Assembly: GCA_017404665.1 (NCBI GenBank)
Contig: JAFRBX010000076.1
Coordinates: 52,540-116,539, forward strand
From: Ruminococcus sp.
GTDB lineage: Bacteria; Bacillota; Clostridia; Oscillospirales; Acutalibacteraceae
Length of the DNA stretch: 64,000 nt
Direction of reading: 5' to 3'
In this document: positions 29,481-58,232 of the stretch, piece by piece
Layout: the number at the start of each line of letters is the position of its first letter
Numbering within the stretch: the first letter of the stretch is position 1
Made by a program: the position numbers and the translations under genes
The notes under the pieces: model-generated
The model's input: only the letters and a program-made list of their open reading frames with translations
What the model was told of the DNA's origin: nothing
Database searches by the model: none

Positions 29481-29483
29481 CGC

Positions 29484-41278: not shown

Positions 41279-41279
41279 A

Positions 41280-42784: not shown

Positions 42785-43720
42785 TCACAGGGCTGAGGTA
42801 TTTGTGATGAATTGCCTTATGACGTCTTCGTATCGATCGGGATAGTAATAATAGCACAAGCCGTGACCCGCTTCGGGAAAAGTGCGTCTTTCGATCATAG
42901 AAGGATTGGAAACAGCGACCTCATTGCTCATCTCAGGCGGCACAAAATCATCGCCTTCGCCGTGGATGATCAGTATCGGCACCTTTGTATTTTTTGCTTC
43001 CTGAGCGGCGGTAGTCGCGCTGATATTGAATCGTCCGTAAATCAGCCCCGAAAGCCAAACTATAGGCCAGCATAAATCGGGATTCAGATTGATCTTGCGG
43101 CAAACATGCCGGATGATGTCCTTAGGGGAGTTAAACGGACAGTCGGCGACGATACCCTTAACGTTTTTCGGCAGCTCCTGTCCCGATGCCATCAGCACAG
43201 TGCCCCCGCCGAGCGAGATGCCGAAGAGATATATGGACGTTTCCTTTCCGAACCGTCTGTCGGCATATCTGATCCATGACAAAGCATCATAGCGTTCTTT
43301 GATTCCGAAGGTGATGGTATGTCCTTGGGAGCGCCAGTGTGCTCTTTGATCGACGAGCAGGACGCTGTATCCTTCACGTATCAAAAACAGACCGATCCCC
43401 GAAAAGTCGCGGATTGCCGAACCGCGGTATCCGTGAAAACAAATACAAAGCGGCTTGCTGCTCTTTCCCTGATAGTATCTCGCGCTGAGCTTCAGCCCGT
43501 CATAGGAGCGTGTTCTGACATATTCGCAGGGAATTCTGCTGAGCTCCTCGGTTTTTTGACGAGCCGCGTCGCTGAAAGGATGATTGGAAATCGACGGAGG
43601 ACTCTCCGTTTCGGACATATCCTTTGTTGGCGAATAGAACACCTTATGATACGCGGTGTACAGTCCGGCGAAAAAGAACAGAATAACTGCGGAGAGAAAA
43701 AGAATGATTACGATCGTCAT
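42785..43720 (-). CDS. Alpha/beta hydrolase with N-terminal membrane anchor
   Basis: CFHGY, DQRAH, GISLGG nucleophile elbow, IHGEGDDFVP, AGHG. Confidence 0.88.
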   Translation of the reverse strand: MTIVIILFLSAVILFFFAGLYTAYHKVFYSPTKDMSETESPPSISNHPFSDAARQKTEELSRIPCEYVRTRSYDGLKLSARYYQGKSSKPLCICFHGYRGSAIRDFSGIGLFLIREGYSVLLVDQRAHWRSQGHTITFGIKERYDALSWIRYADRRFGKETSIYLFGISLGGGTVLMASGQELPKNVKGIVADCPFNSPKDIIRHVCRKINLNPDLCWPIVWLSGLIYGRFNISATTAAQEAKNTKVPILIIHGEGDDFVPPEMSNEVAVSNPSMIERRTFPEAGHGLCYYYYPDRYEDVIRQFITNTSAL

Positions 43721-43910
43721 AGTACATCCCCCGTGAAAATACTTCTTTATCCGTATCAGGTTTTTATCATTCCTATTGTAACATACAGTCTGTCGATTTG
43801 CAATCGTGCATTGTTTTTTCGAATGAATCGATTTCTTGAAAAAAAGTAGTGATTTTTGTTTTTGTTTATGATATAATTGAAAAGATAATAAAACTATTGA
43901 AGGAGTTTTT

Positions 43911-44210
43911 ATGATGACAATCAATAAAAAATCTGAAGGTTCAAAGCTGCTGGTCAAAATCGAAGGCCGTTTGGATACCAATACTACTCCCGATGCGGAA
44001 AAGGAATTGATGAACGGCTTGGAAAATATCACGGAGCTGACGCTGGATTTTGCTGAACTCGACTATATTTCATCCGCCGGTCTCAGACTTCTTTTATCCT
44101 TGCAGAAGAGAATGAATGTTTGCGGCTCCATGAAGATTCTGAACGCCAACGAGATCGTGAAGGAAATCTTCGAGGTGACAGGCTTTTCGGATATCCTGAC
44201 CGTTGAATAA
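43911..44210 (+). CDS. STAS-domain anti-sigma-factor antagonist
   Basis: GRLDTNT, LDYISSAGLRLLL, IFEVTGF. Confidence 0.9.
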   Translation: MMTINKKSEGSKLLVKIEGRLDTNTTPDAEKELMNGLENITELTLDFAELDYISSAGLRLLLSLQKRMNVCGSMKILNANEIVKEIFEVTGFSDILTVE

Positions 44211-44236
44211 GGGACGATTCCCGGGAGAAAAAGGTA

Positions 44237-45907
44237 ATGGCTGAACTGAAAAAAAGCGAATTGATTCGCGCGTCATACGGCATCAACCTGCCGCTCGAAG
44301 GAGAGGTGCTGTCGTCTTCTGCCGCAGTATGCCGCAACGGCACATTTGTAGGCAAGACAACCGGCGACATCCTCGCGTTTCGCGGAATCCCTTACGCCAA
44401 GCCGCCTGTCGGCGAGCGCCGCTGGAAGCGTCCCGTTCCCGTTGACACCGACTCCGGCGTATATGAAGCTTATTACAACGGTAAAAGCCCGATCCAGACC
44501 GAGTGGGAGACTGAGCAGGCGTCCTATTATCCGCAGGGTGAGGACTGTCTGTATCTCAATATATGGCTCAATAAAAGCTGCTCTGAAACCGATAAGCCCG
44601 TTATCGTCTTTCTGCACGGCGGTGCATACGGCTGGGGCGGTACCGCCGATCCGCTGTATGACGGCGCGAATTTTGTGCGGCATAATCCCGATATCGTTCT
44701 GGTTACCGTCGGTTATCGCACGGGGCTGATGGGCTTTGTCGATCTATCCTATCTTAAGGGCGGCGAATTTTATCCGGACGCGCCTAATCTCGGATTGCTC
44801 GACCAGATCGAAGCATTACGCTGGGTTCAAAAGAATATAGCGGCATTCGGCGGAGATCCCGACAACGTTACCATATGCGGCGAATCGGCGGGCGGCGGCA
44901 GTGTTTCTCTGTTTCCGATTATCGGCGAGGCGAAGGGCTTGTTCCGGCGCGTGATAGCAGAAAGCGGTTCGGTCGCGCTGACGTTTTCAAAAGAGCAGTG
45001 CAAAGCGTTCACCAAGCGTCTGATGCGTGAAAGCGGACTCAAAACGATGGACGAGCTGACGGCGCTGTCGGAGGATGATCTGAAGCGGCTGAATAAAAAG
45101 CTGAATTATTACAATAACTTCCCGCAGCGTGACGGCATGCTGATCCCTCTTGATCCCTATCGTCCTTATGAGATCGGCGCCACATCGGATATCGATATCC
45201 TCATCGGTACCAACAGCGACGAAGCAAACTACTGGGTGGGGGAGATCGGCGGCATCGTACCCTACCGTTTCAGTATTCCCGTCAAATATGAAAATGATTT
45301 AAAAACACTCACCCTCACCGATCGAAAGCGCGTCAAAAGCTTTATGAGCAGCCTTTCGGGTCACAGCATCTGGCGCATGTCGGAGTTTTACGATGAAATG
45401 ATGTTCCGTCTGCCGGCAATCAAACAGGCGCAGAGTCACGTGCAGAACGGGGGAAAGGTCTTTATGTACTATTGGACCCAGCCTTCATCGGTAAAATACC
45501 GCGGCGCCTGTCACGCGGTGGAGCTTGCCTATGTTTTCGGCAATCTGGATGAGACCATCTTCACCGGCGAGCGCGGCAGTGAAGAGCTGTCCCGTACCGT
45601 GATGACGATGTGGGCGAACTTCGCCCGTACCGGCGACCCTTCTGCGGAGGGGCTTGCATGGCTCCCTTATGATGCCGACCGCCGTTCAACGATGGTGATA
45701 TCCGCCGAACCGGAAATGTACGATGATGTGTTGTCCGAACAGAGAAAACTGCTGTTTCCGCTGCTGCGCTACATGATCAACCCCTCCTATGCCGAATTGG
45801 ATTATAACGTACCTTTTGTCAGAAAGACAGCAGGGCTTACCGCCGCTGCTGCGGTATCGGCAGTTGCTCTTGTTATCGGCATCGTGAAGCTGTTCAAGGA
45901 CGATTGA
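44237..45907 (+). CDS. Type-B carboxylesterase/lipase with C-terminal membrane anchor
   Basis: FRGIPYA, EDCLYLNIW, HGGAY, GESAGG, HAVEL. Confidence 0.9.
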   Translation: MAELKKSELIRASYGINLPLEGEVLSSSAAVCRNGTFVGKTTGDILAFRGIPYAKPPVGERRWKRPVPVDTDSGVYEAYYNGKSPIQTEWETEQASYYPQGEDCLYLNIWLNKSCSETDKPVIVFLHGGAYGWGGTADPLYDGANFVRHNPDIVLVTVGYRTGLMGFVDLSYLKGGEFYPDAPNLGLLDQIEALRWVQKNIAAFGGDPDNVTICGESAGGGSVSLFPIIGEAKGLFRRVIAESGSVALTFSKEQCKAFTKRLMRESGLKTMDELTALSEDDLKRLNKKLNYYNNFPQRDGMLIPLDPYRPYEIGATSDIDILIGTNSDEANYWVGEIGGIVPYRFSIPVKYENDLKTLTLTDRKRVKSFMSSLSGHSIWRMSEFYDEMMFRLPAIKQAQSHVQNGGKVFMYYWTQPSSVKYRGACHAVELAYVFGNLDETIFTGERGSEELSRTVMTMWANFARTGDPSAEGLAWLPYDADRRSTMVISAEPEMYDDVLSEQRKLLFPLLRYMINPSYAELDYNVPFVRKTAGLTAAAAVSAVALVIGIVKLFKDD

Positions 45908-45934
45908 CAGTAAAGTGTTTTGATAACTAGTAAA

Positions 45935-45970
45935 CCGCGTACAGTCGAGGATGATTGTACGCGGCTTCTT
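45935..45970 (+). terminator. Terminator after the carboxylesterase
   Basis: CCGCGTACA...TGTACGCGG-CTTCTT. Confidence 0.65.
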
Positions 45971-45980
45971 ATTAGTATTA

Positions 45981-46020
45981 GTCATTGCGCAGCCCTTTTT
46001 AGGGCTGCGGCAATCTCAAC
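45981..46020 (+). repeat. REP family A copy
   Basis: GTCATTGCGCAGCCCTTTTTAGGGCTGCGGCAATCTCAAC. Confidence 0.8.
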
Positions 46021-46099
46021 CGATTATATCGGAATCATTCTTCATATAAAATAGTATAGTTAACCATAATATGTCATCGTAAAGTCATGTCAAATTTCC

Positions 46100-46128
46100 T
46101 TGCTTTTTAGCGGTAATTGTGGTAAGAT
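46100..46128 (+). promoter_or_regulatory. sigma-A promoter of the acyl-ligase operon
   Basis: TTGCTT-N17-TAAGAT with extended TG. Confidence 0.55.
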
Positions 46129-46192
46129 ACATCTTGTTAATGCTATAAAGGAGAGTTTCGGCTTTTTCGAAAAACGCCGTTCACGATTGCAT

Positions 46193-48118
46193 ATGGGCGA
46201 CATCGGTCTCGGAAAATATAAGAGCATCAAGGATTATGTAGAGTCCAAGCTGCGCGAGTTTGAATCGCGCGGTCTGACGATGTCTGTGCTTTTTTCACTG
46301 ATGTTTCAGGAAAAAGACAATATCATGTATGAGCGCAGCCGCGGATATCGGATCGAAACCTTTACCTACGGCGAGGTAGAGGATCGGATACTGTCCAGAT
46401 CCCTTTCGCTGCAGAAGCTGCTTTCTGACATTCCTTCGGGTTCCGTCGTCGGTCTGTCGATGGAGAACTCGCTCGACTGGATCGAGAACTTCTGGGCGAT
46501 TCTCCTGTGCGGCTTTACGCCGCTGTTGATCAATCTGCGTTTGTCGCAGGAGATGGTCGAGGGAGCGATCCGCGACAGTCAATGTAAAGCGGTCGTTTCC
46601 GACAAACGGACCTATTCAGTCAAAACTGTCATGAACAGTGATATCCGATATATCGACAGCCGTATGAAGCCTGATGTTTTCGGCGAAGAGATATTGGTCA
46701 TGACCTCCGGCACCTCTCGTCATGTCAAGCTCTGCGCATATTCTGCACAGGAGCTTTTCTATCAGATCAAGGGCAGCTACGGTATTATCCGCGAATGCGA
46801 TCTGATCAAGCGTCATTATCAGGATCGGCTCAAGCTGCTGACCTTCCTGCCTTTTTATCACGCTTTCGGTTTGGTGGCTGTTTATATCTGGTTTTCTTTC
46901 TTTTCGCGAACCTTTGTCGAGCTGAAGGACCTGATGCCCGATACCATCACCGGTACCGTGCGCCGTCATCATGTCACACACATCTTTGCCGTACCGCTGT
47001 TCTGGGAAACAGTATACGAGCAGGCGATGAAAACCATTCGTCTGCGCGGTGAGGAGACGGAGCGCAAGTTCAAAAAGGCGATGGAGCTTAGATATAAGCT
47101 CGGCGATTCCGTCTTAGGTGAATTGTTCTCGAAGCTCGCGTTCAGAGAGGTGCGCGAAAACCTCTTCGGCGACAGCATCCGGTTCATGATCACAGGCGGA
47201 TCCTCGATCTCCACAGACGCGATGCGCTTTTTCAACGGTATCGGCTACCATATCGCCGACGGCTACGGAATGAGTGAGATCGGCATCACCTCGGTCGAGC
47301 TCTCCAAAAAGCCGAGCATCCTCAATGCCTGCTTCATCGGCAAGCCGATGGACGGTATGGAATACCGCATCAACGCTGACGGCGAGCTGGAGGTCAAGGG
47401 CAGGGCGATCGCCCGCTATATCATCGAGGACGGTGAGCGCAGGATTATCAATACCGGCTTCTTTCAGACCCACGATCTGGCAGTCTGCGAGAACGGTCAT
47501 TATAAGATACTCGGCAGAAAAGACGATCTGGTCATCGGCTATTCGGGTGAAAACCTCAATCCGAATCTGATCGAACCCGCGCTGAAGCTGGAGAATGTCA
47601 ACGAGGTGTGTCTGATCGGCGCGCGCGAAGGCTCTCAGGTCGTACCGACGCTGGTTCTTTCTGTCAATCGCTATATCTCAGCCGAAAAGCTTGAAGCGCT
47701 GGATCGTGCCGTCAAGAAAAAGCTCGAAGAAATGCATCTGAGTTCTGAAATACGAAAGCTGCTATACGTCAGCGACAGACTGATCGTCGACGACGAGTAT
47801 AAGCTTAACCGTATCCGGCTGCGTCAGCAGCTGGAGGACAACCGCTTTACAGAGATTCATCCGATCGGCGCCGATGAAGGCTTGCAGGATGAGCTCGCAC
47901 AGCGCATCAGAGAATTCTTTGCCGCCGCGCTGAGTCTCAAAACGGGGGATATCTCCGACAAAGCTGATTTCTTCCTCGATCTGGGCGGATCGTCGCTCGA
48001 CTATTTCGGAATGATCTCCGCGCTTGAGGGCGAGTTTTCGGTCAAGATCCCCGTGGAGCAGAGTTCGTCGCTCTCGACCGTCGCTGCTTTCCACGCATTC
48101 TTATCCGAAAGGCTATAG
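46193..48118 (+). CDS. Acyl-adenylating enzyme fused to a C-terminal phosphopantetheine carrier domain
   Basis: MTSGTS, LPFYHAFG, GYGMSE, FQTHD, GRKDD; carrier motif DFFLDLGGSSL. Start uncertain. Confidence 0.85.
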   Translation: MGDIGLGKYKSIKDYVESKLREFESRGLTMSVLFSLMFQEKDNIMYERSRGYRIETFTYGEVEDRILSRSLSLQKLLSDIPSGSVVGLSMENSLDWIENFWAILLCGFTPLLINLRLSQEMVEGAIRDSQCKAVVSDKRTYSVKTVMNSDIRYIDSRMKPDVFGEEILVMTSGTSRHVKLCAYSAQELFYQIKGSYGIIRECDLIKRHYQDRLKLLTFLPFYHAFGLVAVYIWFSFFSRTFVELKDLMPDTITGTVRRHHVTHIFAVPLFWETVYEQAMKTIRLRGEETERKFKKAMELRYKLGDSVLGELFSKLAFREVRENLFGDSIRFMITGGSSISTDAMRFFNGIGYHIADGYGMSEIGITSVELSKKPSILNACFIGKPMDGMEYRINADGELEVKGRAIARYIIEDGERRIINTGFFQTHDLAVCENGHYKILGRKDDLVIGYSGENLNPNLIEPALKLENVNEVCLIGAREGSQVVPTLVLSVNRYISAEKLEALDRAVKKKLEEMHLSSEIRKLLYVSDRLIVDDEYKLNRIRLRQQLEDNRFTEIHPIGADEGLQDELAQRIREFFAAALSLKTGDISDKADFFLDLGGSSLDYFGMISALEGEFSVKIPVEQSSSLSTVAAFHAFLSERL

Positions 48119-48131
48119 ATTTCGATTCATT

Positions 48132-48773
48132 ATGTTTTATTGTTTCTTCAACTGGTTTGCGAAGGTCACCGGCTGGCTCATCCAGCTTGTATGCTTCCGC
48201 ACAAAAATATATTATGAAGACAAATCGCTTCAAAATCGCCGTATTCGAGGCAAGGCAATCTTGATCTCCAACCATACATCTGTTTTCGATTACCCTGTCA
48301 CGATATTTGTATTTTGGACACGCACACTGCGCTTTCAGATGTCGGAGCTTGTGATGAACAAGCCTGTGCTGGGCGTGCTGCTGCGGATGCTCGGCGGGAT
48401 CTTTGTCGACCGCACGACGCATGATTACGGCTATATGGCGAAGAGCGAACGAATCCTTGATAAAGGAGGCGTCGTGGGTATCTGCCCCGAGGGCAGGATA
48501 CCGCTCAAGGGCGAAGAGCGGCCGCTTCCGTTCAAGTCGGGCGCTGCATATCTGGCGCTGACTACCGACACGACCATCATCCCGATGTTTACGAACGGAT
48601 CGTATTTCAATTTGAAAAAACGAGCCCGCGTGATGATCGGAATGCCGATCATTCCTTCACAGGTCGCCGATCCCTCTCTTTCCGATAAAGAGAATATCGA
48701 AAAGCTCAACCGCGTCATGCGGGAAAAAATCATTTCCTTAGGACAAATGCTGCATGAAAGAACCAAAGAATAA
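48132..48773 (+). CDS. PlsC-like lysophospholipid acyltransferase 1
   Basis: NHTSVFD (HxxxxD), GGIFVDR, PEGR, FKSG. Confidence 0.88.
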   Translation: MFYCFFNWFAKVTGWLIQLVCFRTKIYYEDKSLQNRRIRGKAILISNHTSVFDYPVTIFVFWTRTLRFQMSELVMNKPVLGVLLRMLGGIFVDRTTHDYGYMAKSERILDKGGVVGICPEGRIPLKGEERPLPFKSGAAYLALTTDTTIIPMFTNGSYFNLKKRARVMIGMPIIPSQVADPSLSDKENIEKLNRVMREKIISLGQMLHERTKE

Positions 48774-49413
48774 GGCGAAGCTGTTTTCCCTGAAATATCT
48801 GTTTGTCGATTTTGTCAGGATAACAGGCGCGCTGCCGACGTACATCTGGTACCGTCCCCAAATAGTGTATGAGAACAGAGCCGCTCGGCAAAGGATTCGC
48901 GGCGGCGCATTACTGATTTCCAATCACAACTGTTTTTTTGACCCGATCTATATCATGATCGCCCTGTGGTACCGACGTCATCATATCGTCTGCAATCAGG
49001 AGTTTTACAATACCAAGGCGCGCTGGTTTTTAGAGCACGTATTATGTATCCCGATCGATATCGACAACATCGGTTTCAATACGATGAAAGAGATCAACGA
49101 CCATTTGACTGCCGGCGAGCTGGTGTCGATGTTTCCCGAGGGTCACGTCAACGACGGCTCCGGCGAAATGCGCAGCTTTAAAAGCGGCATGGTGCTGATG
49201 GCGATGCGCGCAAAGGTGCCGATCGTTCCGATTTATGTCAAGGAACATAAACCCCGCAGCAGCCGCTTGAAGGTTGTTGTCGGCGAAGCGATCGACGTCA
49301 ATCAACTGTTCGGTTCCCGTCCGACGATGACGGATATCGAAAATGTCACAGAAAAGCTATTTCAAAAAGAAAATGAACTCAAGGAGATCGCCTTCGGGCG
49401 ACGCTCCCGATGA
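48754..49413 (+). CDS. PlsC-like lysophospholipid acyltransferase 2
   Basis: NHNCFFD, FPEGH, FKSG, PIVPIY. Confidence 0.88.
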   Translation: MKEPKNKAKLFSLKYLFVDFVRITGALPTYIWYRPQIVYENRAARQRIRGGALLISNHNCFFDPIYIMIALWYRRHHIVCNQEFYNTKARWFLEHVLCIPIDIDNIGFNTMKEINDHLTAGELVSMFPEGHVNDGSGEMRSFKSGMVLMAMRAKVPIVPIYVKEHKPRSSRLKVVVGEAIDVNQLFGSRPTMTDIENVTEKLFQKENELKEIAFGRRSR

Positions 49414-49430
49414 CACGGAGGATGAATGCA

Positions 49431-50942
49431 ATGATGACAACCAAAGAAGTTTTCAGACCCTATACCGATCCCGAACAGTTTGACCGCATCGTGGAGATGG
49501 ACAGCGTTTCCGAGATGTGGCGTCATTCGGTGCAGAATTATCCCGAAGCGGTCGCAATATCGGATAACGGGAAGGATCATACATATGCCGCAATCGACGC
49601 TGACGTCAGCCGATTTCGCTCGCTGATACGCTGTGACGGTGAAAAGCCGCGCATAGGCGTCTACTGCCCGAATTCCTATGATTTTGTCCGCGCTTATCTG
49701 GCGGTCGTCACCCTCGGCTGTACCGCGGTGATCCTTCCGCCTCAACTCGACAAAATGACGGTTTTCGGCTGTGTGATGAAGTTCGGTATCAGCAAGCTGA
49801 TCTGCCATCCTTCTTTAGTAGAAAATACAGAGATTTTGGCGGCAAAGCGCCCCGACGTCCCGATTGTTTTGTCCGATGCCGTGTGTGATGAAATCACAGA
49901 TGCCGTGTATCCCGCAGCCGACGATCCCTGCGTGATCATGTTTACGGGCGGTACTACCGGCAAGAGCAAGGGAGCGCTGCTTTCTAACGGCGCTGTGATG
50001 CAGGGCACCGTCAACGGCTGCTACGGTTATCGGGATGTATTCTCTCAGCGCTATCTGCTGATCCTGCCGCTGACGCATGTGTTCGGTCTGATCCGCAATC
50101 TGATGACCTCTCTGTATACCGGCTCTGCTTTGTATATCTGCCGCAACAATAAAGATATGTTCCGCGATATCGCTGTGTTCCGTCCGACGATTCTGGTAGC
50201 TGTTCCTGCGCTCGCGGAAATGGCGCTGAATCTCTCCAAAAAATTCGGCAAAAACATGCTCGGCGATTCGCTGAAAGCCATTATTTGCGGCGCTGCGGCG
50301 GTGCCGCCGTATCTGATCCATGAGTATAAAAAGGTATTCGGTATCACGCTTTTTCCCGGCTACGGTCTGACCGAAAGCGCCAATCTGGTTTCCGGAAATC
50401 CCGAAAATGACAAAAAGCCCGAGTCTGTCGGACTGCTATATCCGAATCAGGAGGTTAAGGTTGTTGACGGCGAGCTCCGCATCAAGGGCAAGAACATGAT
50501 GATCTGTTATATCGGTGAGGAAGAAGATGGCGTCTATGATGAAGATGGCTACTTCCGCACCGGCGATCTGGTTCGCTTTGACGAGGACGGTTTCCTTTAT
50601 ATCACCGGCAGGATCAAGGAGATCATCGTTCTGCCTACCGGCGAGAACATCTCTCCCGCTGAGCTGGAGGTCCGCTTTCTGGCGCTCGATCTCATTCAGG
50701 ACGCGCAGGTCTATGAGGATGTTTCCGAGGACGGCAGTCATTTTCTGGCGCTGGAGGTCGTTCCGCGCGCACCCGAGGTCGCGAAGCTCGGTGATGCGGA
50801 TGCGGCAGCTGTGATCACCGGAGAACTGGAAAAGATCAATGATACCCTGCCCACCGAACAGCGGGTGTCGCGCATCATCGTTCGTGATTCCGACTTTGAG
50901 CGCACGCCCAGTATGAAGATCAAGAGGTATAAAAAATGCTGA
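49431..50942 (+). CDS. Long-chain acyl-CoA/ACP ligase (AMP-binding)
   Basis: FTGGTTGKSKG, LPLTHVFG, GYGLTE, YFRTGDL, GRIKE. Confidence 0.9.
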   Translation: MMTTKEVFRPYTDPEQFDRIVEMDSVSEMWRHSVQNYPEAVAISDNGKDHTYAAIDADVSRFRSLIRCDGEKPRIGVYCPNSYDFVRAYLAVVTLGCTAVILPPQLDKMTVFGCVMKFGISKLICHPSLVENTEILAAKRPDVPIVLSDAVCDEITDAVYPAADDPCVIMFTGGTTGKSKGALLSNGAVMQGTVNGCYGYRDVFSQRYLLILPLTHVFGLIRNLMTSLYTGSALYICRNNKDMFRDIAVFRPTILVAVPALAEMALNLSKKFGKNMLGDSLKAIICGAAAVPPYLIHEYKKVFGITLFPGYGLTESANLVSGNPENDKKPESVGLLYPNQEVKVVDGELRIKGKNMMICYIGEEEDGVYDEDGYFRTGDLVRFDEDGFLYITGRIKEIIVLPTGENISPAELEVRFLALDLIQDAQVYEDVSEDGSHFLALEVVPRAPEVAKLGDADAAAVITGELEKINDTLPTEQRVSRIIVRDSDFERTPSMKIKRYKKC

Positions 50943-51190
50943 CGAGAACTGAGATTTTTGAAAAGCTGAAAGAGATTCTGCTTTTTGCCGATCCGAAAAA
51001 CCGTGAAATGATCGAAAAAAGCGATGAGAACACCAAGCTCGTTGCCGATCTCGGCTTTACGTCTGTTTCTGTACTGTATATGGTCATCGCGATCGAAGAG
51101 AGCTTCGGCTTTGTTTTCGGCGACGTTTCGATGAACGACTTTCCGACGATCGGCGCCGTCATCGATTACATCGAGGCGCAGCTCAAATGA
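50936..51190 (+). CDS. Stand-alone acyl carrier protein
   Basis: Small acidic protein, LVADLGFTSV carrier-Ser motif, IEESFG, TIGAVIDYI. Confidence 0.8.
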   Translation: MLTRTEIFEKLKEILLFADPKNREMIEKSDENTKLVADLGFTSVSVLYMVIAIEESFGFVFGDVSMNDFPTIGAVIDYIEAQLK

Positions 51191-51606
51191 AATGGATATA
51201 TGAGCCCTGCCGCTTCGGCGATATCATTCGCGTAAAGATCGGTTCCGTATACCATTACGGGATCTTTGTCAGCGAGGATGAGGTCATCGCGTTCGGACTC
51301 CCTCCTACAGCGGAAAACCTGAAAGAACCGCAGAAGATTAAAGTGCTTGCCACGAATATCGATACATTTTCCTGCGGTAATCTCGTTGCGGCAGCTCAAT
51401 TGAGCTTTGCGGAAAAGCGCCGGCGCAAAAGCCCCGAGAAGACAGTTGCCGAAGCCAGAGCGCGTATCGGCGAGGTCGGCTATAACATCATCCACAATAA
51501 CTGCGAGCACTTTGTGAACGAGATCGTTTTCGGTGAAAAGGTCTCGCAGCAGGAAAGAGCTGTCCGGGAAAAGTGGCAGCGCTTCCATTCGAACAAATCA
51601 CCGTAA
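51187..51606 (+). CDS. LRAT-family (permuted NlpC/P60) acyltransferase/phospholipase
   Basis: HYGIF and YNIIHNNCEHF, the hallmark LRAT motifs. Confidence 0.85.
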   Translation: MKWIYEPCRFGDIIRVKIGSVYHYGIFVSEDEVIAFGLPPTAENLKEPQKIKVLATNIDTFSCGNLVAAAQLSFAEKRRRKSPEKTVAEARARIGEVGYNIIHNNCEHFVNEIVFGEKVSQQERAVREKWQRFHSNKSP

Positions 51607-51630
51607 AGAAGATGTGTTTTATTTCAAATA

Positions 51631-51692
51631 GCCATTGCGAAGCTCCTTGAACACGTGTGGAAAACGCGTTTTCGGGGCTGAGGCAATCTCAA
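51631..51692 (+). repeat. REP family A copy
   Basis: GCCATTGCGAAGC...GAAAACGCGTTTTCGGGGCTGAGGCAATCTCAA. Confidence 0.75.
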
Positions 51693-51725
51693 AAGATCTA
51701 TGGGTGTTTTACCTTTCGATTCAAC

Positions 51726-52664
51726 ATGCTCTACCTTATTATCCTGCTTCTGATTATTCTGTTTCTTATCATTTTCCTGATCGCGCCGGCAGTAGTTATC
51801 TACCGGTCTGTTTTCGGTCGCCGCAAAGTATTGCCGCTGGATGATCCGAAGCTGTATAAGCCGGCAATCGAACCGTTCAGGGAACGTATGCTTTCGGATT
51901 GGAATGATCTGAAAGAAAAGGGCTTTGACCGTGTGACTGTAAAAGCTCGTGACGACGTGACGCTATGCGCTGATTATTATGACAGAGGCGTCAAAAGGAC
52001 GGTGATCATGTCTCACGGCTATAACGCTGACCCATACGTTAATTTGGTATCGCCCGCAAAGTGGTTTTACGATAACGGCTTTAATGTTCTCATCATCTAC
52101 CACCGCGCTCACGGCTGCAGCGGGGGAAAACGCAGCGGTATGGGAATGATCGAAAAGAACGATATCCTGACGTGGATCGATTTCATTCTGAAAAAGGACG
52201 GTTCACAGAGGATCCTTCTGTACGGGATCTCGATGGGCGGCACGACGCTGGCTTATCTCAGCGATACGCTGAGAGAGGAGCGTATCCCCTGCATGGTGAT
52301 CGACTGCGGCTTTATTTCGACCGAAAATCAGCTCCGGCATGACGCGAAACGGATGCGTATGCCGCCGCTTCTGATCCCTTTCCTCAGGCTGCTGTGCCGA
52401 TGGGATCAGCATATCGATATCCGTGAGCGTACCACGGATCATCTGAAAAACGCAAAAAAACCGATACTGTTTATCCACGGTACTGCCGATCTGACCGTGC
52501 CGTTTGAAGAGGGCATAGCGAATTATGACGCCTGTTCATCCGAAAAACGGATGGTCATCGTTGAAGGCGCAGGTCATACGACAGCGTTTTTGACCGATGA
52601 AAAGCAGGTTGCCGACGCTATGAAGGATTATATTGATACTTATTTTAAGGAGATATTCACATGA
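51726..52664 (+). CDS. Alpha/beta hydrolase with N-terminal membrane anchor
   Basis: SHGY, HRAHG, GISMGG, IHGTAD, GAGH. The ORF-track start at 51657 lies inside the REP, so 51726 is preferred. Confidence 0.88.
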   Translation: MLYLIILLLIILFLIIFLIAPAVVIYRSVFGRRKVLPLDDPKLYKPAIEPFRERMLSDWNDLKEKGFDRVTVKARDDVTLCADYYDRGVKRTVIMSHGYNADPYVNLVSPAKWFYDNGFNVLIIYHRAHGCSGGKRSGMGMIEKNDILTWIDFILKKDGSQRILLYGISMGGTTLAYLSDTLREERIPCMVIDCGFISTENQLRHDAKRMRMPPLLIPFLRLLCRWDQHIDIRERTTDHLKNAKKPILFIHGTADLTVPFEEGIANYDACSSEKRMVIVEGAGHTTAFLTDEKQVADAMKDYIDTYFKEIFT

Positions 52665-53596
52665 ACGATTTTATTTTGATGGCTGACGCGGGCTGTGACT
52701 TATCCGCGAAATTGCAGGAACAGTATGACATCAAGGTGATCAACGGTCATCTGGTGCTGCCCGGCAAGGGCGACGTTCCTTCCTTTATGAAGTGGGAGGA
52801 TGTTACCAGAGAACAGTTCTACACCGAGCTCAAAAAGAATCCTTCCGATTACGCTACCGCGCCTGCAAACCTGACAGAGTATGAAAACGCATTTACTTCT
52901 TTTGTCAAAGAGGGCAAGGCTGTCATCTGTGTGACAATTTCCAGCGCGATCTCCGGTTCTCTTGATTTTGCGACTGCCGCTCGCAAGAATGTATTGCAGA
53001 ATTATCCCGACGCTAAGATCGAGCTGATCGATTCTCTGCGCTTCGGTCCCGGCTTCGGACTGATGCTGGTGCACGCCTCCATCCTCCGCTCCGAGGGCAA
53101 AACCTTTGAAGAGGTTTCGGATTATCTGGTCAAGAACCGCAACCGTTTCCATCAGGCGGGCTGGCTGGACGATCTCAGCTTTGTCGCCAAAAAGGGCAGG
53201 ATCACCCATCCGAAGGCGTTCTTCGGCACGCTTGCGGGCATCAAGCCCATCGGCGAATTCGACTCAGGAGGTCTGACCACCGTGCTCGGCAAGGCTAAGG
53301 GCGCCAAGGCTGCCTACGCTGTTTTGATGAAGTATATCGAAGCGACCATCGAGGATCCCGAGGATCAGTATATCTTTATCGCTCAGACCAACCGCTATCC
53401 GCAGGCTGAGGTCTACAAGAAGATGATCGAAGAGAAATTCAAGCCCAAAGCGGTATTCATTAACGATGTATTCCCGTTCTGCGGCATCAACATCGGTCCC
53501 GGACTGATGGCGGCATACTATATGGGCAAGCCGATCTCGGATGATCTGAGCACCGAGCGCGCTCTGATCGAAAAATTCATCGCAGAGGCAAAATAA
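52661..53596 (+). CDS. DegV family fatty-acid-binding protein (FakB-like)
   Basis: ADAGCD, TAPAN, ISSAISGS, GRI, GIKP, NIGPG. Confidence 0.85.
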   Translation: MNDFILMADAGCDLSAKLQEQYDIKVINGHLVLPGKGDVPSFMKWEDVTREQFYTELKKNPSDYATAPANLTEYENAFTSFVKEGKAVICVTISSAISGSLDFATAARKNVLQNYPDAKIELIDSLRFGPGFGLMLVHASILRSEGKTFEEVSDYLVKNRNRFHQAGWLDDLSFVAKKGRITHPKAFFGTLAGIKPIGEFDSGGLTTVLGKAKGAKAAYAVLMKYIEATIEDPEDQYIFIAQTNRYPQAEVYKKMIEEKFKPKAVFINDVFPFCGINIGPGLMAAYYMGKPISDDLSTERALIEKFIAEAK

Positions 53597-53598
53597 TA

Positions 53599-55242
53599 AT
53601 GTCTACCAAAAGAATCAACGGAATCCATCTTGAAAAGATGATCAAAAACGGGCTTGCTTTTCTTCAGCAGCACGAAGAAGAGGTCAACCGACTGAATGTC
53701 TTTCCCGTACCCGACGGCGATACCGGCACCAACATGGTGCTGACGCTCGGCAACGGCGTGCGCTTCGCAAAATCCGGCGAGGACGCCGGCGCGTATCTGC
53801 GCAGTCTTTCCGACGGCATGCTGCTGGGCGCCCGCGGCAATTCCGGCGTTATCCTGTCTCAATTTTTTCGCGGCTTTGCGGTGGAAATGGCGCGCTGTCC
53901 CGTAATCGGACCGGGAGAACTGCGAAACGGTCTGATCCGCGGTTATCGCACGGCTTATGAAGCGGTTGTACATCCTGTGGAAGGTACGATCCTCTCCGTT
54001 ACCCGCGAGGGCATCGAGCATATCCGTTCCCAGATTACCCGTAACTCGTCCATCGAGAGCATCCTTTCCATGTATATCGCCGAAATGCGCAAGACTTTGT
54101 CCTTTACGCCCGAAATGCTCAGCGTGCTGAAGGAAGCTGGTGTTGTCGACAGCGGAGCCTACGGTATTATTCTGATCTTTGAGGGTATGCTCAAGTGCTT
54201 GTACGGTGAAGTGATTGATCCGGTCGAGCGCCCCCAAGCGCCTTCCGAAACGCCGCTGATCGATTTGTCGCTTTTTAATGAAAATTCCGAGTTTTCCGAC
54301 GGTTACTGTACTGAATTCATCCTGCAGCGTCTTGTCAATTCTCGCTATCAGCAGGAGTTCAATAGGGATAATTTTATTTCCGAGCTGCGCTTTTTCGGCA
54401 ATTCGATCGCTGTTGTGGTTGACGGTATGCGCGTCAAGGTACATATCCATACGCTTTATCCGTCCAAGGTGATCGCGTTCGCGCAGCAGTACGGCGAATT
54501 CCTGACCTTCAAGATGGAAAACATGCAGGTGCAGCACAACGAGCACGACCGCATCATCGGAACGAAAAAAGCACATAAACCGCTGGCAGTGATCGCTGTT
54601 GTCAACGGCGAGGGCATGCGCTCGCTGTTTGAAAGCTTCGGATGTGATATCGTGATCGACGGCGGCACTACGATGAACACCTCCTCTGCGGAGTTTTTGG
54701 AGGCATTCGATCATGTCGACGCCGACGCGGTCGTTATCCTCCCGAATAATCCCAATATCATTTTGGCGGCGAATCAGGCAGTCCAGCTCTCCAAGCGCCG
54801 CGATATTACGGTTATCGAGTCCAGGAGCGTCGCGCAGGGATACTTTGCGATGGCGATGGATATTCCGGACAGCGGCGACGTCAAATACCGCATCTCACAG
54901 ATGCAGAGCGGCATCGAGAATATCGCGACAGTCAGCCAGACGGTCGCGTCACGCGGCTACAGCTATCATGAGATCAGCTGCCGCAAGGGCGACGAGATCG
55001 CCCTGCTCGACGGAGAGATCGTCAGTGTCGGTTCCGACTATGCAAAAACGATCGCTGATACACTCTCCGCGATACCGGATATCGACGATAAGGAAACCTG
55101 CGTCGTTTTCCGGGGAGCGAATGTTCCTGCAGAAAGGGAAGAGGAGCTTTACGAGCTTTTGTCAGCACGTTATCCGTTGATGGATTTCGAGTTTATCAAC
55201 GGCGGTCAGGAGATTTACCACTGGATCATCGGTATCGCCTGA
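53599..55242 (+). CDS. fakA: DAK2-domain fatty-acid kinase (FakA/YloV-like)
   Basis: NRLNVFPVPDGDTGTNM, GARGNSG, VEGTIL, VDSGA, YCTEF, KVHIH, GGTTMN, GGQEIY. Confidence 0.88.
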   Translation: MSTKRINGIHLEKMIKNGLAFLQQHEEEVNRLNVFPVPDGDTGTNMVLTLGNGVRFAKSGEDAGAYLRSLSDGMLLGARGNSGVILSQFFRGFAVEMARCPVIGPGELRNGLIRGYRTAYEAVVHPVEGTILSVTREGIEHIRSQITRNSSIESILSMYIAEMRKTLSFTPEMLSVLKEAGVVDSGAYGIILIFEGMLKCLYGEVIDPVERPQAPSETPLIDLSLFNENSEFSDGYCTEFILQRLVNSRYQQEFNRDNFISELRFFGNSIAVVVDGMRVKVHIHTLYPSKVIAFAQQYGEFLTFKMENMQVQHNEHDRIIGTKKAHKPLAVIAVVNGEGMRSLFESFGCDIVIDGGTTMNTSSAEFLEAFDHVDADAVVILPNNPNIILAANQAVQLSKRRDITVIESRSVAQGYFAMAMDIPDSGDVKYRISQMQSGIENIATVSQTVASRGYSYHEISCRKGDEIALLDGEIVSVGSDYAKTIADTLSAIPDIDDKETCVVFRGANVPAEREEELYELLSARYPLMDFEFINGGQEIYHWIIGIA

Positions 55243-55262
55243 TGGAATATGTTATTTAAATA

Positions 55263-55325
55263 GTCATTGCGAAGCCCCTTGAACACGCGTGGAAAACCCG
55301 TTTTCAGGGTTGCGGCAATCTCAAC
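55263..55325 (+). repeat. REP family A copy
   Basis: GTCATTGCGAAGCCCC...GGGTTGCGGCAATCTCAAC. Confidence 0.8.
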
Positions 55326-55375
55326 CGATTCAATCAGGTTGAATCCTCGCCCGCAATGTACTGTAAGGAGTTTCT

Positions 55376-56311
55376 ATGCCTTTTTGGATCTGGATCATTA
55401 TCATCGCCGTCATCGTGTTCGGCATATTGCCGCTGCCTGTTCTCGGGTTTTATCTTTATTCCGTTCTTCTGGTGCGGACCTCTCCCAAGAAATGGGGCAG
55501 GGAGTGCAGTATCCCCGATGATGAGGAATACAAGCGAATGTTCGATATCGGTATCGAATGGGAGAAGAAATATTCTTCTCATAAACAGCCTGTCGAGATC
55601 GTCAGCGACGGTTTTCGTCTGGTCGGCGAATTTTTTGATTTCGGCTCCGATACCTCAGTGATCATCATCGCCGGCCGCATGGAGTCCCTGCTCTATTCCT
55701 ATTATTTTGCCGAGCCTTACCGCCGTCTCGGATACAATATCCTTGTCATCGATAACCGTGCTCACGGTTTGTCCGAGGGAAAGTTCCTGTCGCTGGGCTT
55801 CAAGGAATATCGCGATATCCTTCGGTGGGGCGAGCTGCTGCACGACAGCTTTCATCAGAAAAGCATTGTGATCCACGGTATCTGCATCGGTTCCAGCGTC
55901 GGCTTGTTCGCGCTCTGCGCGCCGGAGTGTCCCGATTATTTCAGGGCGATCGTCGCCGAGGGTATGTACACCTGTTTTAAGGATTCTTTTGTCAATCACC
56001 TGATCGACGGACACCATTCCGTTCAGCCCGCGACCTTTTTTGTCATGCTCTATCTTCGCATATTCGCCGGAGCGGATGCGTCTGACGGCCCCGTCAACCG
56101 GATCGATCAGCTCAAAAAACCGATCCTTTTTATTCACAGCAAAGAGGATGTATTTTCACTGCCGAGCGAGGTACAGCAGGTTTATGACCGCTGTCGGAGC
56201 GAAAAAAAGCTGGTTTGGTTCGATAAGGGCGCTCATTCCCGCGTAAGGATCAATGCTCCCGAAAGATATGACGAAACTGTAATTGACTTTTTATCCCGTT
56301 TAGTTGTATAA
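55376..56311 (+). CDS. Alpha/beta hydrolase-fold protein with Cys at the nucleophile elbow
   Basis: DNRAHG, GICIGS, IHSKED, KGAH; N-terminal TM. Confidence 0.82.
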   Translation: MPFWIWIIIIAVIVFGILPLPVLGFYLYSVLLVRTSPKKWGRECSIPDDEEYKRMFDIGIEWEKKYSSHKQPVEIVSDGFRLVGEFFDFGSDTSVIIIAGRMESLLYSYYFAEPYRRLGYNILVIDNRAHGLSEGKFLSLGFKEYRDILRWGELLHDSFHQKSIVIHGICIGSSVGLFALCAPECPDYFRAIVAEGMYTCFKDSFVNHLIDGHHSVQPATFFVMLYLRIFAGADASDGPVNRIDQLKKPILFIHSKEDVFSLPSEVQQVYDRCRSEKKLVWFDKGAHSRVRINAPERYDETVIDFLSRLVV

Positions 56312-56403
56312 TATACACAGAGTATCCGCATCTATCTGAATGAGCGGGTATTTGAATACTTCCGGTTTTCCGGTCAATATCACTTTACAGGAGGATATTA
56401 CAT

Positions 56404-57000
56404 ATGATTTGTAAACAATGTGGCAACGAAGTTCCCAATGATGCAAAGTTCTGCGGTGTTTGCGGCACACCCAACGAAGCATACGGCATGCCCGCGGAGC
56501 AGCCCGTGTACGCTCAGCCTGCAGACAACCAGTATGCTCAGCCTGCTGATAATCAGTATGCTCAGCCCGCTTACGGCCAGCCGCAGTATGCGCAGCCTGC
56601 CGAGCCCCAGTACAACCAGCCTCAGTATGGTCAGCAGTACGGTCAGCCGCAATACGGTCAGCCTGCATACAGCGCTCCCGCGGCTGAGGATCCCACAGAG
56701 CGCAGTCTTGCCAAATCCACGCTGATTTTCGGTATTCTCGGCATTGCGTTTCCCTGCACCTTCTACCTTGCATTCTTAGGTATTATTTTCGGCATTATCG
56801 CTATGAGTAAAGCGAAGAAGTATGTTGCATCCGGCTATGTTCTGACAGGTAAAGCCAAGGTAGGCAAAATCCTCGGTACCGTCGGCATGATTCTCGGCAT
56901 TGTTTTGACAGTCATCCTGGTCTTTATTATTATCGCTGCAATTGTTGCCGCTACCACTTCCAGTAATTACTACAGCAGTTACGGCGGCTATTATTATTGA
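56404..57000 (+). CDS. Zinc-ribbon + Q/P/Y-rich linker + DUF4190-like membrane protein
   Basis: CKQCG...FCGVCG, YAQPADNQ and QPQY repeats, two TM helices. Confidence 0.75.
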   Translation: MICKQCGNEVPNDAKFCGVCGTPNEAYGMPAEQPVYAQPADNQYAQPADNQYAQPAYGQPQYAQPAEPQYNQPQYGQQYGQPQYGQPAYSAPAAEDPTERSLAKSTLIFGILGIAFPCTFYLAFLGIIFGIIAMSKAKKYVASGYVLTGKAKVGKILGTVGMILGIVLTVILVFIIIAAIVAATTSSNYYSSYGGYYY

Positions 57001-57023
57001 TCTGTCATCAACGCAACACCATT

Positions 57024-57049
57024 CGGAGCTGTCCTCTGCGGCAGCTCCG
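57024..57049 (+). terminator. Terminator hairpin
   Basis: CGGAGCTG...CAGCTCCG-TTTCT. Confidence 0.6.
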
Positions 57050-57058
57050 TTTCTGTAA

Positions 57059-57110
57059 GGCTCCCTTTGGTAAAGGGAGCTGTCACGGCATCAAGCCGTG
57101 ACTGAGGGAT
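57059..57110 (+). repeat. REP family B copy
   Basis: GGCTCCCTTTGGTAAAGGGAGCTG-TCACGGC ATCAA GCCGTGA-CTGAGGG; first 24 nt identical to the copy at 15779. Confidence 0.8.
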
Positions 57111-57212
57111 GGCATTATTTGTTTGACCGCAGGCAGTTCGAAGCCTGTATACTTTTGTTTCAACGTATAATCTCAACAAATCGACTTATCATAACAAAGG
57201 AGGCGCCTACAT

Positions 57213-58184
57213 ATGAAAACAAGTAAAAATACGAAACGGGTGCTTCATGTTCTTTTGATAGTTGTTTTGGTTTTTGTTATGATCTCGATGGCGGTCACGA
57301 TGATTTTTTATCAGACGGCTTTTCCCCGGAGCGATGTACTTTCCGACTTTTCTCTCAGCTATTCGGATATTGACGCCTCCTTATATCCATGCAGACAGAT
57401 CAATTTTTCTTCCGGTTCCAACACGCTGTCCGGTTATTGCTATACCTGTCCTCAGCCCTCGGCGCTGGTGGTGACCGCGGCGGGCTTTCGCGACAGCGGC
57501 GCTTCCTATCTGCCAGAGATGACCTACATGGTCGATAACGGCTTCGATGTGTTCTGCTATGACGCGACCGGCGTAGGGGAGAGTGAAGGTGTTTCCGCTG
57601 TCGGTTTATCCCAGCCATCCCTTGATCTTCGGGCGGCGCTGTCGTATATTGCGAACGATCCCGAACTCTGTGAGCTCCCGATACTGCTCTACGGCTATTC
57701 AGCGGGCGGCTACGCTGCGGCTCGCTGTGCAGGATGCGACAACGTCAAAGCGGCTGTTATTATCTCGGGTTTTGAGTCTCCGACGCAGCTGATGCGCGAG
57801 ACGGCGCGCTCCTATGTCGGAATCTTTGCGGATATCGAATATCCATTCATGAATCTCGGCAATGCCCTCACCTTTGGAACCGACGCCGATAACAGCGCTT
57901 CTGCATCTATCGCCGAAGCGAAAATCCCAATCGCGGTTTACGAGGGTGCAGATGATGAGCGTGTTCCGGCGTCATGCCGCCTGAGCGCGTATCTCGATGC
58001 GTCGGACGACAACCTGACGCTCACGGTCAGCGATATCCCCGGTCACAGCGGACACAGCGACCTGTGGCTGTCCGAATCGGCTGTCGCAGCCCGAGAGAGC
58101 AGCTCTGCAGATCCATTTGCCGCCAACGAGCCCGATCCCGTGTTTATCCGCAGCGTGATCCGGTTTTTAAAAGCGGCCCTATAA
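57213..58184 (+). CDS. Secreted/anchored alpha/beta hydrolase
   Basis: N-terminal TM, YDATGVGES, GYSAGG, EGADD, GHSD. Confidence 0.82.
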   Translation: MKTSKNTKRVLHVLLIVVLVFVMISMAVTMIFYQTAFPRSDVLSDFSLSYSDIDASLYPCRQINFSSGSNTLSGYCYTCPQPSALVVTAAGFRDSGASYLPEMTYMVDNGFDVFCYDATGVGESEGVSAVGLSQPSLDLRAALSYIANDPELCELPILLYGYSAGGYAAARCAGCDNVKAAVIISGFESPTQLMRETARSYVGIFADIEYPFMNLGNALTFGTDADNSASASIAEAKIPIAVYEGADDERVPASCRLSAYLDASDDNLTLTVSDIPGHSGHSDLWLSESAVAARESSSADPFAANEPDPVFIRSVIRFLKAAL

Positions 58185-58207
58185 TCTGCATGCATAGAAA
58201 AATAACG

Positions 58208-58232
58208 AGGAGGGTGATCGACCCTCCTTTTG
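58208..58232 (+). terminator. Intrinsic terminator
   Basis: AGGAGGGT-GATCG-ACCCTCCT-TTTG. Confidence 0.7.

Follow-up and report, generated by a model that had tools for sequence, protein, structure and literature searches.

A conserved operon of rumen and gut Clostridia joining acyl ligases, carriers, PlsC-type and LRAT-fold acyltransferases to a fatty acid kinase: a candidate membrane-lipid remodelling system

In a 64,000-nucleotide stretch of the Ruminococcus sp. contig JAFRBX010000076.1 (assembly GCA_017404665.1, positions 52,540 to 116,539; hereafter the window, whose own numbering is used throughout), eleven plus-strand genes at 46193-57000 form a compact operon in the order LigACP-PlsC1-PlsC2-Lig2-ACP2-LRAT-hyd1-DegV-FakA-hyd2-Zn-ribbon. 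Our favoured reading, to which we give a probability of roughly 0.5, is that this operon encodes an Aas/LplT-like system for the de-acylation, transacylation and re-acylation of membrane lipids, joined to fatty acid kinase salvage. In full, free fatty acids would be salvaged and the acyl chains of membrane glycerolipids exchanged at the cytoplasmic face, in a Gram-positive, multi-protein counterpart of LplT/Aas. What was observed directly, and what this reading is built on, are the genes present, the structure of the operon, its conservation, the intact catalytic motifs and the domain fusions.

Gene identities were obtained from a listing of open reading frames (ORFs) and from Pfam and NCBIfam scans of the window ORFs, in which the Pfam gathering cut-offs were exceeded. 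An earlier note made from the letters of this DNA (the original prediction) had named the same genes, all of which were found where it had placed them; the zinc-ribbon gene at 56404-57000 had gone unmentioned, and one start, that of the flanking hydrolase gene hyd0, was corrected to 43720. The operon and the hydrolase gene behind it comprise the following features.

46193-48118, plus strand: LigACP, ANL ligase with C-terminal carrier domain, first gene of the operon (PF00501 and PF00550)
48132-48773, plus strand: PlsC1, PlsC-family acyltransferase, true start at 48132 (PF01553, E = 1.5e-20)
48754-49413, plus strand: PlsC2, PlsC-family acyltransferase (PF01553, E = 6.7e-22)
49410-50942, plus strand: Lig2, stand-alone ANL ligase (PF00501, E = 1.6e-59); public gene calls start at 49431 instead, giving 503 amino acids
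50936-51190, plus strand: ACP2, free carrier with the motif DLGFTS (PF00550)
51187-51606, plus strand: LRAT/PLAAT-fold Cys-His acyltransferase, 139 amino acids (PF04970, 62.8 bits against a cut-off of 24.3)
51630-51695, plus strand: copy of a repeated hairpin element between LRAT and hyd1 (repeat match)
51726-52664, plus strand: hyd1, alpha/beta serine hydrolase with N-terminal transmembrane anchor, ORF opening at 51657 (Hydrolase_4/Abhydrolase_1)
52661-53596, plus strand: DegV-family fatty-acid-binding protein, FakB-like (PF02645, E = 1e-47)
53599-55242, plus strand: catalytic subunit of a FakA-type fatty acid kinase (Dak2, FakA_M and FakA_C)
55262-55328, plus strand: copy of the same hairpin element between FakA and hyd2 (repeat match)
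55376-56311, plus strand: hyd2, alpha/beta serine hydrolase with N-terminal transmembrane anchor (Pfam)
56404-57000, plus strand: zinc-ribbon/DUF4190 membrane protein, 198 amino acids, with a Q/P-rich linker and a domain of two transmembrane segments (Pfam)
57213-58184, plus strand: hyd3, alpha/beta hydrolase with signal-anchor (Pfam)

The genes of the operon either overlap, by 20, 4, 7, 4 and 4 nucleotides, or are separated by gaps of 2-14 nucleotides, which bears out the overlapping or abutting run described in the original prediction. The two exceptions to this tight spacing are gaps of about 120-130 nucleotides, each of which holds one copy of the repeated hairpin. Strong terminator-like hairpins lie solely at 45935-45964, 57024-57049 and 58207-58229, with none strong within 46193-57000, suggesting that LigACP through the zinc-ribbon gene are most likely read as a single transcript and that hyd3 is most likely a separate unit with its own terminator (58207-58229). 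In addition, the stop codon of ACP2 overlaps the start of LRAT, the ACP2-LRAT gap having a median of -1 across 84 loci, and by this spacing the two genes are judged to be translationally coupled in those loci.

The repeated hairpin is an intergenic plus-strand element of about 55-75 nucleotides with the consensus ...AGTCATTGCGAAGCCC..GAAAACGCGTTTTC..GGGCTGCGGCAATCTCAACCGAT. It was matched five times (~30470-30530, 38722-38775, 45975-46025, 51630-51695 and 55262-55328), 0.04 matches being expected by chance, and no family fits it in an Rfam scan of the whole window. As the two copies inside the operon split it into three blocks, the element may be a signal for mRNA processing or stability; alternatively, it may be a repeat similar to repetitive extragenic palindromes (REP).

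Conservation was assessed in a species-level scan of 185,579 genomes, one per species, in which relatives were found in 328 and the best 80 loci were analysed, gene order being read by tblastn with the window proteins. In essentially all of these best 80 loci, where the contig was long enough, the order is LigACP-PlsC1-PlsC2-Lig2-ACP2-LRAT-hyd1-DegV-FakA-hyd2(-Zn-ribbon)-hyd3. The original prediction had called for such a check of cluster conservation, and the possibility it had raised, that the order is conserved nowhere, is rejected. LRAT homologs with 74%, 62% and 55% identity are surrounded by the same gene order, which is retained to 50% LRAT identity, also on many metagenome contigs from rumen and human gut, and the sub-order PlsC1-PlsC2-Lig2-ACP2-LRAT was found in 115 loci overall. 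The best 80 loci all come from rumen or hindgut Clostridia, mostly metagenome-assembled genomes of Ruminococcus/Oscillospiraceae, plus the isolate Ruminococcaceae bacterium P7. Besides P7, the cultured bacteria that have the cluster include Ruminococcus sp. JL13D9 (WP_407725272.1) and R. difficilis (GCA_016680995.1). Conservation is highest for FakA, DegV and hyd2, the last being 82-87% identical in close relatives. Nearly all orthologs retain the catalytic motifs, namely HX4D of both PlsC proteins, NNCEHF, the carrier serines, the ANL core and GxSxG of the three hydrolases. The zinc-ribbon/DUF4190 protein is a recurring member of the cluster (40 loci), and a clustering of flanking ORFs brought out no recurrent neighbour besides this protein and an MFS transporter.

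In the LRAT protein, His23 and Cys106 are invariant among 13 sequences and stand in the permuted His...Cys order, H23 aligning with His23 of PLAAT2, and the NNCEHF motif is present in 86 of 87 orthologs. The position of PLAAT3 His35, the third residue of the triad, is taken by Ala35 here and by Gln in relatives; this third polar residue has been found dispensable in LRAT and LnsA (PMC13559823). The predicted model (pLDDT 86.9) finds PLAAT2/3/4 as its top seven Foldseek matches in the PDB (E = 2e-6 to 1.5e-4, TM-score 0.67-0.79). Hydropathy revealed no hydrophobic segment, transmembrane anchor or signal peptide within the 139 amino acids, and the enzyme is predicted to be cytoplasmic. For S. 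aureus LnsA, which is LRAT-like, the acyl donor is the sn-1 chain of phosphatidylglycerol (PG), which is transferred to an acceptor; LRAT-family enzymes including LnsA take the acyl chain of a phospholipid and a lysolipid remains (PMC13559823). A role as a secreted lipid-targeting toxin, as for the type VI secretion system effectors of PMC12994826, was considered and rejected, secretion signal and immunity-gene context being absent. Among the proteins retrieved, P0463 (1125 amino acids) consists of nine tandem PLAAT-like repeats (YQHWAVYIG...NCEHFA); by its sequence it resembles a eukaryotic protein and appears to have no connection with the operon.

The relatives display several architectures that the window lacks. 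An Sfp-type phosphopantetheinyl transferase (PPTase) domain, full or degenerate, is fused in frame to LRAT, between LRAT and hyd1, in 41 of the 80 genome loci. Among the best 150 representatives at 50% identity, 115 LRAT relatives are 251-400 amino acids long, and those scanned carry PF04970 together with PF01648. The LRAT-PPTase fusion being the dominant architecture, the stand-alone LRAT of 139 amino acids in the window is a minority, reduced form. Where the original prediction had a complete pathway, the window has a reduced form: relatives mostly have the LRAT-fused PPTase and many also an MFS_2 transporter gene. The latter separates DegV from FakA in 28 of 71 genome loci and comes directly after LigACP in 11 metagenome loci, on whose contigs no Fak or hydrolase genes were detected; in the window no MFS gene was found. 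A link of this transporter to LplT or MFSD2A was dropped as unsupported by PDB and NCBIfam searches.

Smaller versions exist as well. On the contig of a distant relative, the protein P0589 is a PlsC-LRAT fusion, the PlsC half being 30% identical to PlsC2, within a minimal cluster LigACP-PlsC-PlsC::LRAT, and minimal clusters like this one also occur on human-gut contigs. A metagenome scan with the single PlsC-LRAT fusion as query gave no match, but a repeat based on an alignment did. Two minimal LigACP-PlsC-PlsC-LRAT clusters, L095 (1544-2599) and L099 (3618-5262), have a divergently transcribed GT2 glycosyltransferase gene beside them, L099 additionally a stand-alone divergent Sfp-type PPTase; in these two loci only, the adjacency may hint at a link to glycolipids. 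A few loci keep PlsC2-ACP2-LRAT without Lig2, L066 keeps the block from LigACP to hyd1 with DegV and FakA absent within 9 kb, and L101-L104 and L112 have additional copies of LigACP and PlsC. From these minimal and variant clusters, LigACP, two PlsC proteins and LRAT are taken to be the evolutionary core, to which Lig2-ACP2, PPTase and MFS would be frequent additions and the Fak genes and hydrolases a Ruminococcus-type extension.

As to the activating enzymes, LigACP has the carrier motif GGSSLD (GGxS in 66 of 69 orthologs) and the adenylation motif GYGxSE in all 69, and its AlphaFold2 model (pLDDT 80) was matched by Foldseek to A-PCP didomains, i.e. adenylation domains with a peptidyl carrier, and to MenE. 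In Lig2 the P-loop and GYGxTE motifs are conserved among orthologs, and GxxS of ACP2 is present in 82 of 84. Against TIGR01733 (amino-acid adenylation) LigACP scores 37.6, the cut-off being 317. A non-ribosomal peptide synthetase (NRPS) or fatty acid amide pathway was rejected because a condensation domain is absent, PF00668 having no match in the region ORFs scanned. A polyketide or fatty acid synthase cluster was rejected likewise because a ketosynthase is absent; in agreement with the original prediction, neither a ketosynthase nor any other fab domain was detected in any ORF scanned at 42785-58184.

Of the two acyltransferases, PlsC1 carries the motifs NHTSVFD and PEG, with HX4D in 76 of 78 orthologs, and PlsC2, which is 30% identical to it, the motifs NHNCFFD and FPEG, with NHX4D in 78 of 80. 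The acyl-[ACP]--phospholipid O-acyltransferase model PRK08633 is the best NCBIfam match of PlsC2 (E = 7e-21) and near-best of PlsC1. The scores of the two proteins are 73.7 and 52.5 bits against a cut-off of 1221, and about 22 against 886 for PRK08043; both models span multi-domain fusion proteins.

FakA contains all three Pfam domains and reaches 498.6 bits for TIGR03599 (YloV subfamily, cut-off 396.1), and the operon DegV reaches 180.6 bits for TIGR00762 (cut-off 99.7); the staphylococcal equivalogs FakA_VfrB and FakB1 (NF038248 and NF038249) were not reached (377.6 against 975 and 92.4 against 350). A second, stand-alone DegV protein (FakB-like, 286 amino acids) is encoded on the plus strand at 34035-34895; its Pfam score exceeds that of the operon DegV, to which it is 26% identical, and its presence shows that the operon FakB is a dedicated paralog. 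The two routes of acid activation named in the original prediction, FakA/FakB and ANL ligase/carrier, thus stand together with PlsC and LRAT acyltransferases as far as the domains present can tell.

GxSxG of hyd1 is found in 80 of 80 orthologs, and the nearest solved structure is the esterase 5G59, which hyd2 also matches (E = 2.8e-16). Lysine or arginine residues follow the transmembrane segment in 74 of 79 hyd1 and 64 of 64 hyd2 orthologs and precede it in 44 of 45 hyd3 orthologs. The catalytic domains of hyd1 and hyd2 are accordingly predicted to be cytoplasmic and that of hyd3 extracellular, so that the stripping of fatty acids from host or diet lipids, as originally proposed, fits hyd3 at best.

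These components can be arranged as follows, all substrates, the lipid that accepts acyl groups and the way in which the LRAT step runs being our inference. At the expense of ATP, the two ligases would charge the two dedicated phosphopantetheinyl carriers, one fused in LigACP and one free (ACP2), with carboxylic acids, of which long-chain fatty acids are the most likely. The two Aas-like PlsC proteins would transfer acyl groups from these carriers to lysolipid acceptors. The soluble LRAT would carry out transacylation within the same pathway through an acyl-Cys106 intermediate; its donor, by homology, would be a phospholipid, leaving a lysolipid for repair by PlsC, or alternatively acyl-ACP2. 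The membrane-tethered, cytoplasm-facing hyd1 and hyd2 would remove acyl chains, the dedicated FakB would bind released or imported fatty acids, and FakA would phosphorylate them for re-entry into lipid synthesis, while a release of fatty acids outside the cell may fall to hyd3.

We favour remodelling for four reasons. The logic of transporter, ligase, carrier and PlsC mirrors that of LplT/Aas (PMC11416262), LRAT-family enzymes leave a lysolipid from a phospholipid donor (PMC13559823), the PlsC-LRAT fusion fits an arrangement of transacylation and repair, and the cytoplasm-facing hydrolases, with a dedicated FakB/FakA beside them, suit de-acylation with the fatty acid then being recaptured.

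Several observations weigh against this interpretation. The ligases are generic ANL enzymes, the nearest structures in PDB and Foldseek searches being MenE, oxalate/malonyl-CoA ligases, FadD13 and A-PCP didomains, and neither PDB sequence searches of the ligases nor Foldseek on the LigACP model revealed a signature of fatty acyl-AMP ligases (FAAL) or of AasS; for this reason the ligases might have substrates other than fatty acids. Both PlsC proteins fall below every curated NCBIfam cut-off, including those of the PlsC equivalog and TIGR00530, and the topology of the hydrolases was read by the positive-inside rule alone, from the side of the transmembrane segment on which lysine and arginine lie in orthologs. 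The MFS gene is absent from this window, and the MFS_2 proteins of relatives have weak NCBIfam matches of the GPH/MelB type only and not of the LplT type; against the PDB, neither a single sequence nor a 15-sequence profile gave anything usable (best SUC1, E = 0.064). Dedicated carriers with a dedicated PPTase are more typical of pathways for specialised products than of bulk lipid maintenance. Finally, since the minimal variants lack both the Fak genes and the hydrolases, these may form a detachable addition instead of belonging to one cycle.

The most serious competitor, possible but on balance doubtful, is the dedicated biosynthesis of a specialised acylated product, in which the two ligase/carrier pairs would supply two specific acyl groups, PlsC and LRAT would acylate a particular scaffold, e.g. 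N-acyl-phosphatidylethanolamine (N-acyl-PE), acyl-PG, an acylated glycolipid or a small amine, and Fak and the hydrolases would merely feed in precursors. The carriers are indeed dedicated, one being an A-T didomain (adenylation-thiolation) of a type annotated as NRPS by NCBI, and so is the Sfp-type PPTase, which is LRAT-fused or encoded beside the cluster. Mammalian PLAATs make N-acyl-PE, and the operon has a restricted distribution, with relatives in 328 among 185,579 genomes at species level. The minimal variants L095 and L099 beside the divergent GT2 gene point the same way, but the association concerns two loci only. However, the conserved unit contains no gene for a scaffold or headgroup, no condensation domain and no tailoring enzyme, the PlsC proteins are most Aas-like, and FakA, DegV and hyd2, the supposed precursor feeders, show the highest conservation in the cluster and are linked to the remainder by translational coupling. 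The specialised or N-acyl product of the original prediction is hypothetical.

A further proposal, speculative and to our minds unlikely, is that with the cytoplasmic LRAT/PLAAT-fold enzyme bacteria have a new route of acyl transfer, one tied to carrier proteins. In one form, acyl chains would be moved directly between membrane phospholipids and a phosphopantetheinyl carrier, so that an acyl carrier protein (ACP) would be loaded or unloaded without ATP. In the other, phospholipid or acyl-ACP donors would yield an N-acyl or O-acyl lipid in Ruminococcus, which is abundant in gut and rumen, by analogy with the N-acyl-PE made by PLAAT, and the ligase/carrier/PlsC set would then regenerate the donor lipid. 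If such a route were true, the LRAT-PPTase and PlsC-LRAT fusions would mark an enzyme system not recognised before.

The operon could also serve as a buffer against toxic free fatty acids, in which unsaturated fatty acids of the rumen, once in the membrane, would be captured by FakB and the ligases and esterified into lipids as a sink; we consider this improbable. Gram-positive cellulolytic bacteria of the rumen are sensitive to unsaturated fatty acids. The bacteria that have the cluster are all from herbivore or gut habitats rich in fatty acids, two parallel capture routes are available, and the incorporation of exogenous fatty acids in rumen bacteria is largely unexplored according to a 2025 paper (PMC12394162). 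Genes for an efflux pump, a hydratase or a regulator are absent, however, and nothing in the sequence speaks of toxicity. This buffer is a variant of the remodelling reading with another physiological purpose, from which sequence alone cannot separate it.

Housekeeping synthesis of phosphatidic acid from exogenous fatty acids would make PlsC1 and PlsC2 the main sn-1 and sn-2 enzymes, and the two carriers the only ACPs, of a lineage without fatty acid synthesis of type II (FASII). The doubled ligases, carriers and PlsC proteins, the lack of fab genes in the region and the fact that the operon FakA is the only one within the 64-kb window would suit it. Moreover, the plus-strand genes at 19515-30377 (priA-def-fmt-Zn peptidase-rsmB-rlmN-PP2C-PASTA kinase-rsgA) are the counterpart of the 'ylo' region of B. 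subtilis, where yloV (fakA) lies a few genes further on; in the window yloU/yloV was not found after this priA-rsgA stretch (19.5-30.4 kb), and the operon FakA lies 23 kb downstream on the same strand. Against this stand the PlsC scores under the PlsC equivalog and TIGR00530 cut-offs, the occurrence of the module in minimal and duplicated forms and varying genomic contexts, the ligase-to-hyd1 block of L066 without DegV or FakA, and the lack of plsX and plsY in the operon. In addition, ruminococci elongate branched-chain primers, implying FASII, and we regard this explanation as very improbable. A chance juxtaposition of unrelated lipid genes, for which domain heterogeneity and nothing further could be cited, is effectively refuted by synteny over many loci (the sub-order in 115), overlapping stop and start codons and domain fusions.

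No description of the cluster or of the LRAT-PPTase fusion came up in literature searches on LRAT with ACP, PlsC, phosphopantetheinyl or Ruminococcus and on Ruminococcus fatty acid kinase, in keeping with the original prediction that no cluster of this composition had been described. Each domain family is already known and public databases use unspecific names ('AMP-binding protein', 'NRPS', 'LRAT family protein'), but the gene combination and the LRAT-PPTase fusion are apparently undescribed. How Gram-positive degraders of fibre and starch in rumen and gut deal with exogenous fatty acids has been called 'largely unexplored' (2025, PMC12394162). The operon unites two routes of fatty acid activation with lysolipid-type acyltransferases in one transcription unit, would place a cytoplasmic bacterial LRAT/PLAAT enzyme in a pathway for the first time and is a possible Gram-positive analogue of LplT/Aas, which is described as a Gram-negative system (PMC11416262). 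With 328 species-level genomes and numerous metagenome contigs of rumen and human gut having it, the operon is widespread and could affect membrane composition, dietary-fat tolerance and possibly the output of bioactive lipids in abundant gut bacteria. Biochemistry finds ready-made constructs in the two fusions, LRAT-PPTase and PlsC-LRAT, and in the minimal variants that occur naturally.

On its 5' side the operon is preceded by three flanking genes.

42785-43720, minus strand: hyd0, alpha/beta hydrolase with N-terminal transmembrane segment (Hydrolase_4/Abhydrolase_1)
43911-44210, plus strand: STAS-domain protein, 99 amino acids, immediately 5' of the carboxylesterase (PF01740, E = 1.9e-13)
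44237-45907, plus strand: type-B carboxylesterase, COesterase (PF00135, E = 9e-95)

The listed ORF of hyd0 (to 44032) runs into the STAS gene, and the start is likely Met105 at 43720, giving 311 amino acids; the protein is a paralog of hyd1 (28% identity). The carboxylesterase has a hydrophobic C-terminal tail (residues 532-550) and, by hydropathy, no N-terminal signal peptide. Although carboxylesterase, STAS protein and hydrolases do flank the operon as originally described, the first two and hyd0 lie outside the conserved unit and are confined to the closest relatives; hyd0 occurs in 3 of 80 related loci, and hyd0 together with the carboxylesterase is limited to the closest relatives. In R. 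difficilis alone (L001, 1-3693), an NRPS-like A-T-C protein (AMP-binding, PP-binding, Condensation) that is not in the window is encoded directly 5' of the carboxylesterase ortholog.

Further out, the plus-strand genes at 39265-42594, just 5' of the region, are [FeFe]-hydrogenase maturation genes with a TM1266-like regulator, a radical-SAM/BATS protein, which by its domains looks like HydG, and HydF. Three genes lie just 3' of the region (58411-60780, plus strand), for a small PqqD-like protein, one resembling S24 peptidases and a member of the CotH kinase family in which dockerin is matched weakly; this trio is also found 3' of the operon in R. difficilis (L001, 18603-20423). At the start of the window, a CBM26 starch-binding protein (176-1150, plus strand) suggests an amylolytic Ruminococcus. 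The minus-strand genes at 2480-10187, two PaaK-type ligases (AMP-binding_C_2) around a thiamine pyrophosphate/ferredoxin 2-oxoacid oxidoreductase and then a sodium:solute symporter and an amidohydrolase, look from their domains like a cluster for the activation of aryl or branched-chain acids.

Among known systems, the AasC/LpaT pair of Chlamydia is a near one. The closest comparison is with LplT/Aas, the Gram-negative system of lysophospholipid transport and re-acylation (PMC11416262). In both, an ANL ligase joins free fatty acid to a carrier as a thioester at the cost of ATP and a PlsC-family domain acylates lysolipid at the cytoplasmic face of the membrane, as predicted here from domains, and an MFS gene stands alongside in relatives of the operon. 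Aas is a single polypeptide that uses the housekeeping ACP, whereas the operon components are separate proteins with dedicated carriers, one of them ligase-fused. The operon is also duplicated in its ligases, carriers and PlsC proteins and belongs to a Gram-positive host, and its type adds LRAT, PPTase, Fak and three hydrolases, the MFS being of the MFS_2/GPH type and not in the window.

With FakA/FakB of Firmicutes (PMC10848957, PMC5539427) it shares a DegV binder adjoining a Dak2/FakA_M/FakA_C kinase; here, however, the pair lies inside a ligase/carrier/PlsC/LRAT operon, relatives often have an MFS gene between fakB and fakA, and plsX/plsY are not nearby. In the OaaC pathway of gut Clostridia (PMC13310621) an AMP ligase likewise loads fatty acids, the putative substrate here, onto a carrier. 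That pathway forms amides with a free-standing condensation domain, whereas the operon is without one and transfer would fall to PlsC and LRAT. With PLAAT and LnsA, finally, the LRAT enzyme shares the permuted NlpC/P60 fold, the His/Cys dyad and the NCEHF motif. Unlike them it has no membrane anchor or signal peptide, has Ala/Gln in place of PLAAT His35 and, unlike LnsA, is without an LnsB-like partner; instead it appears to be coupled translationally to a carrier, and its relatives are mostly PPTase-fused and in one case PlsC-fused.

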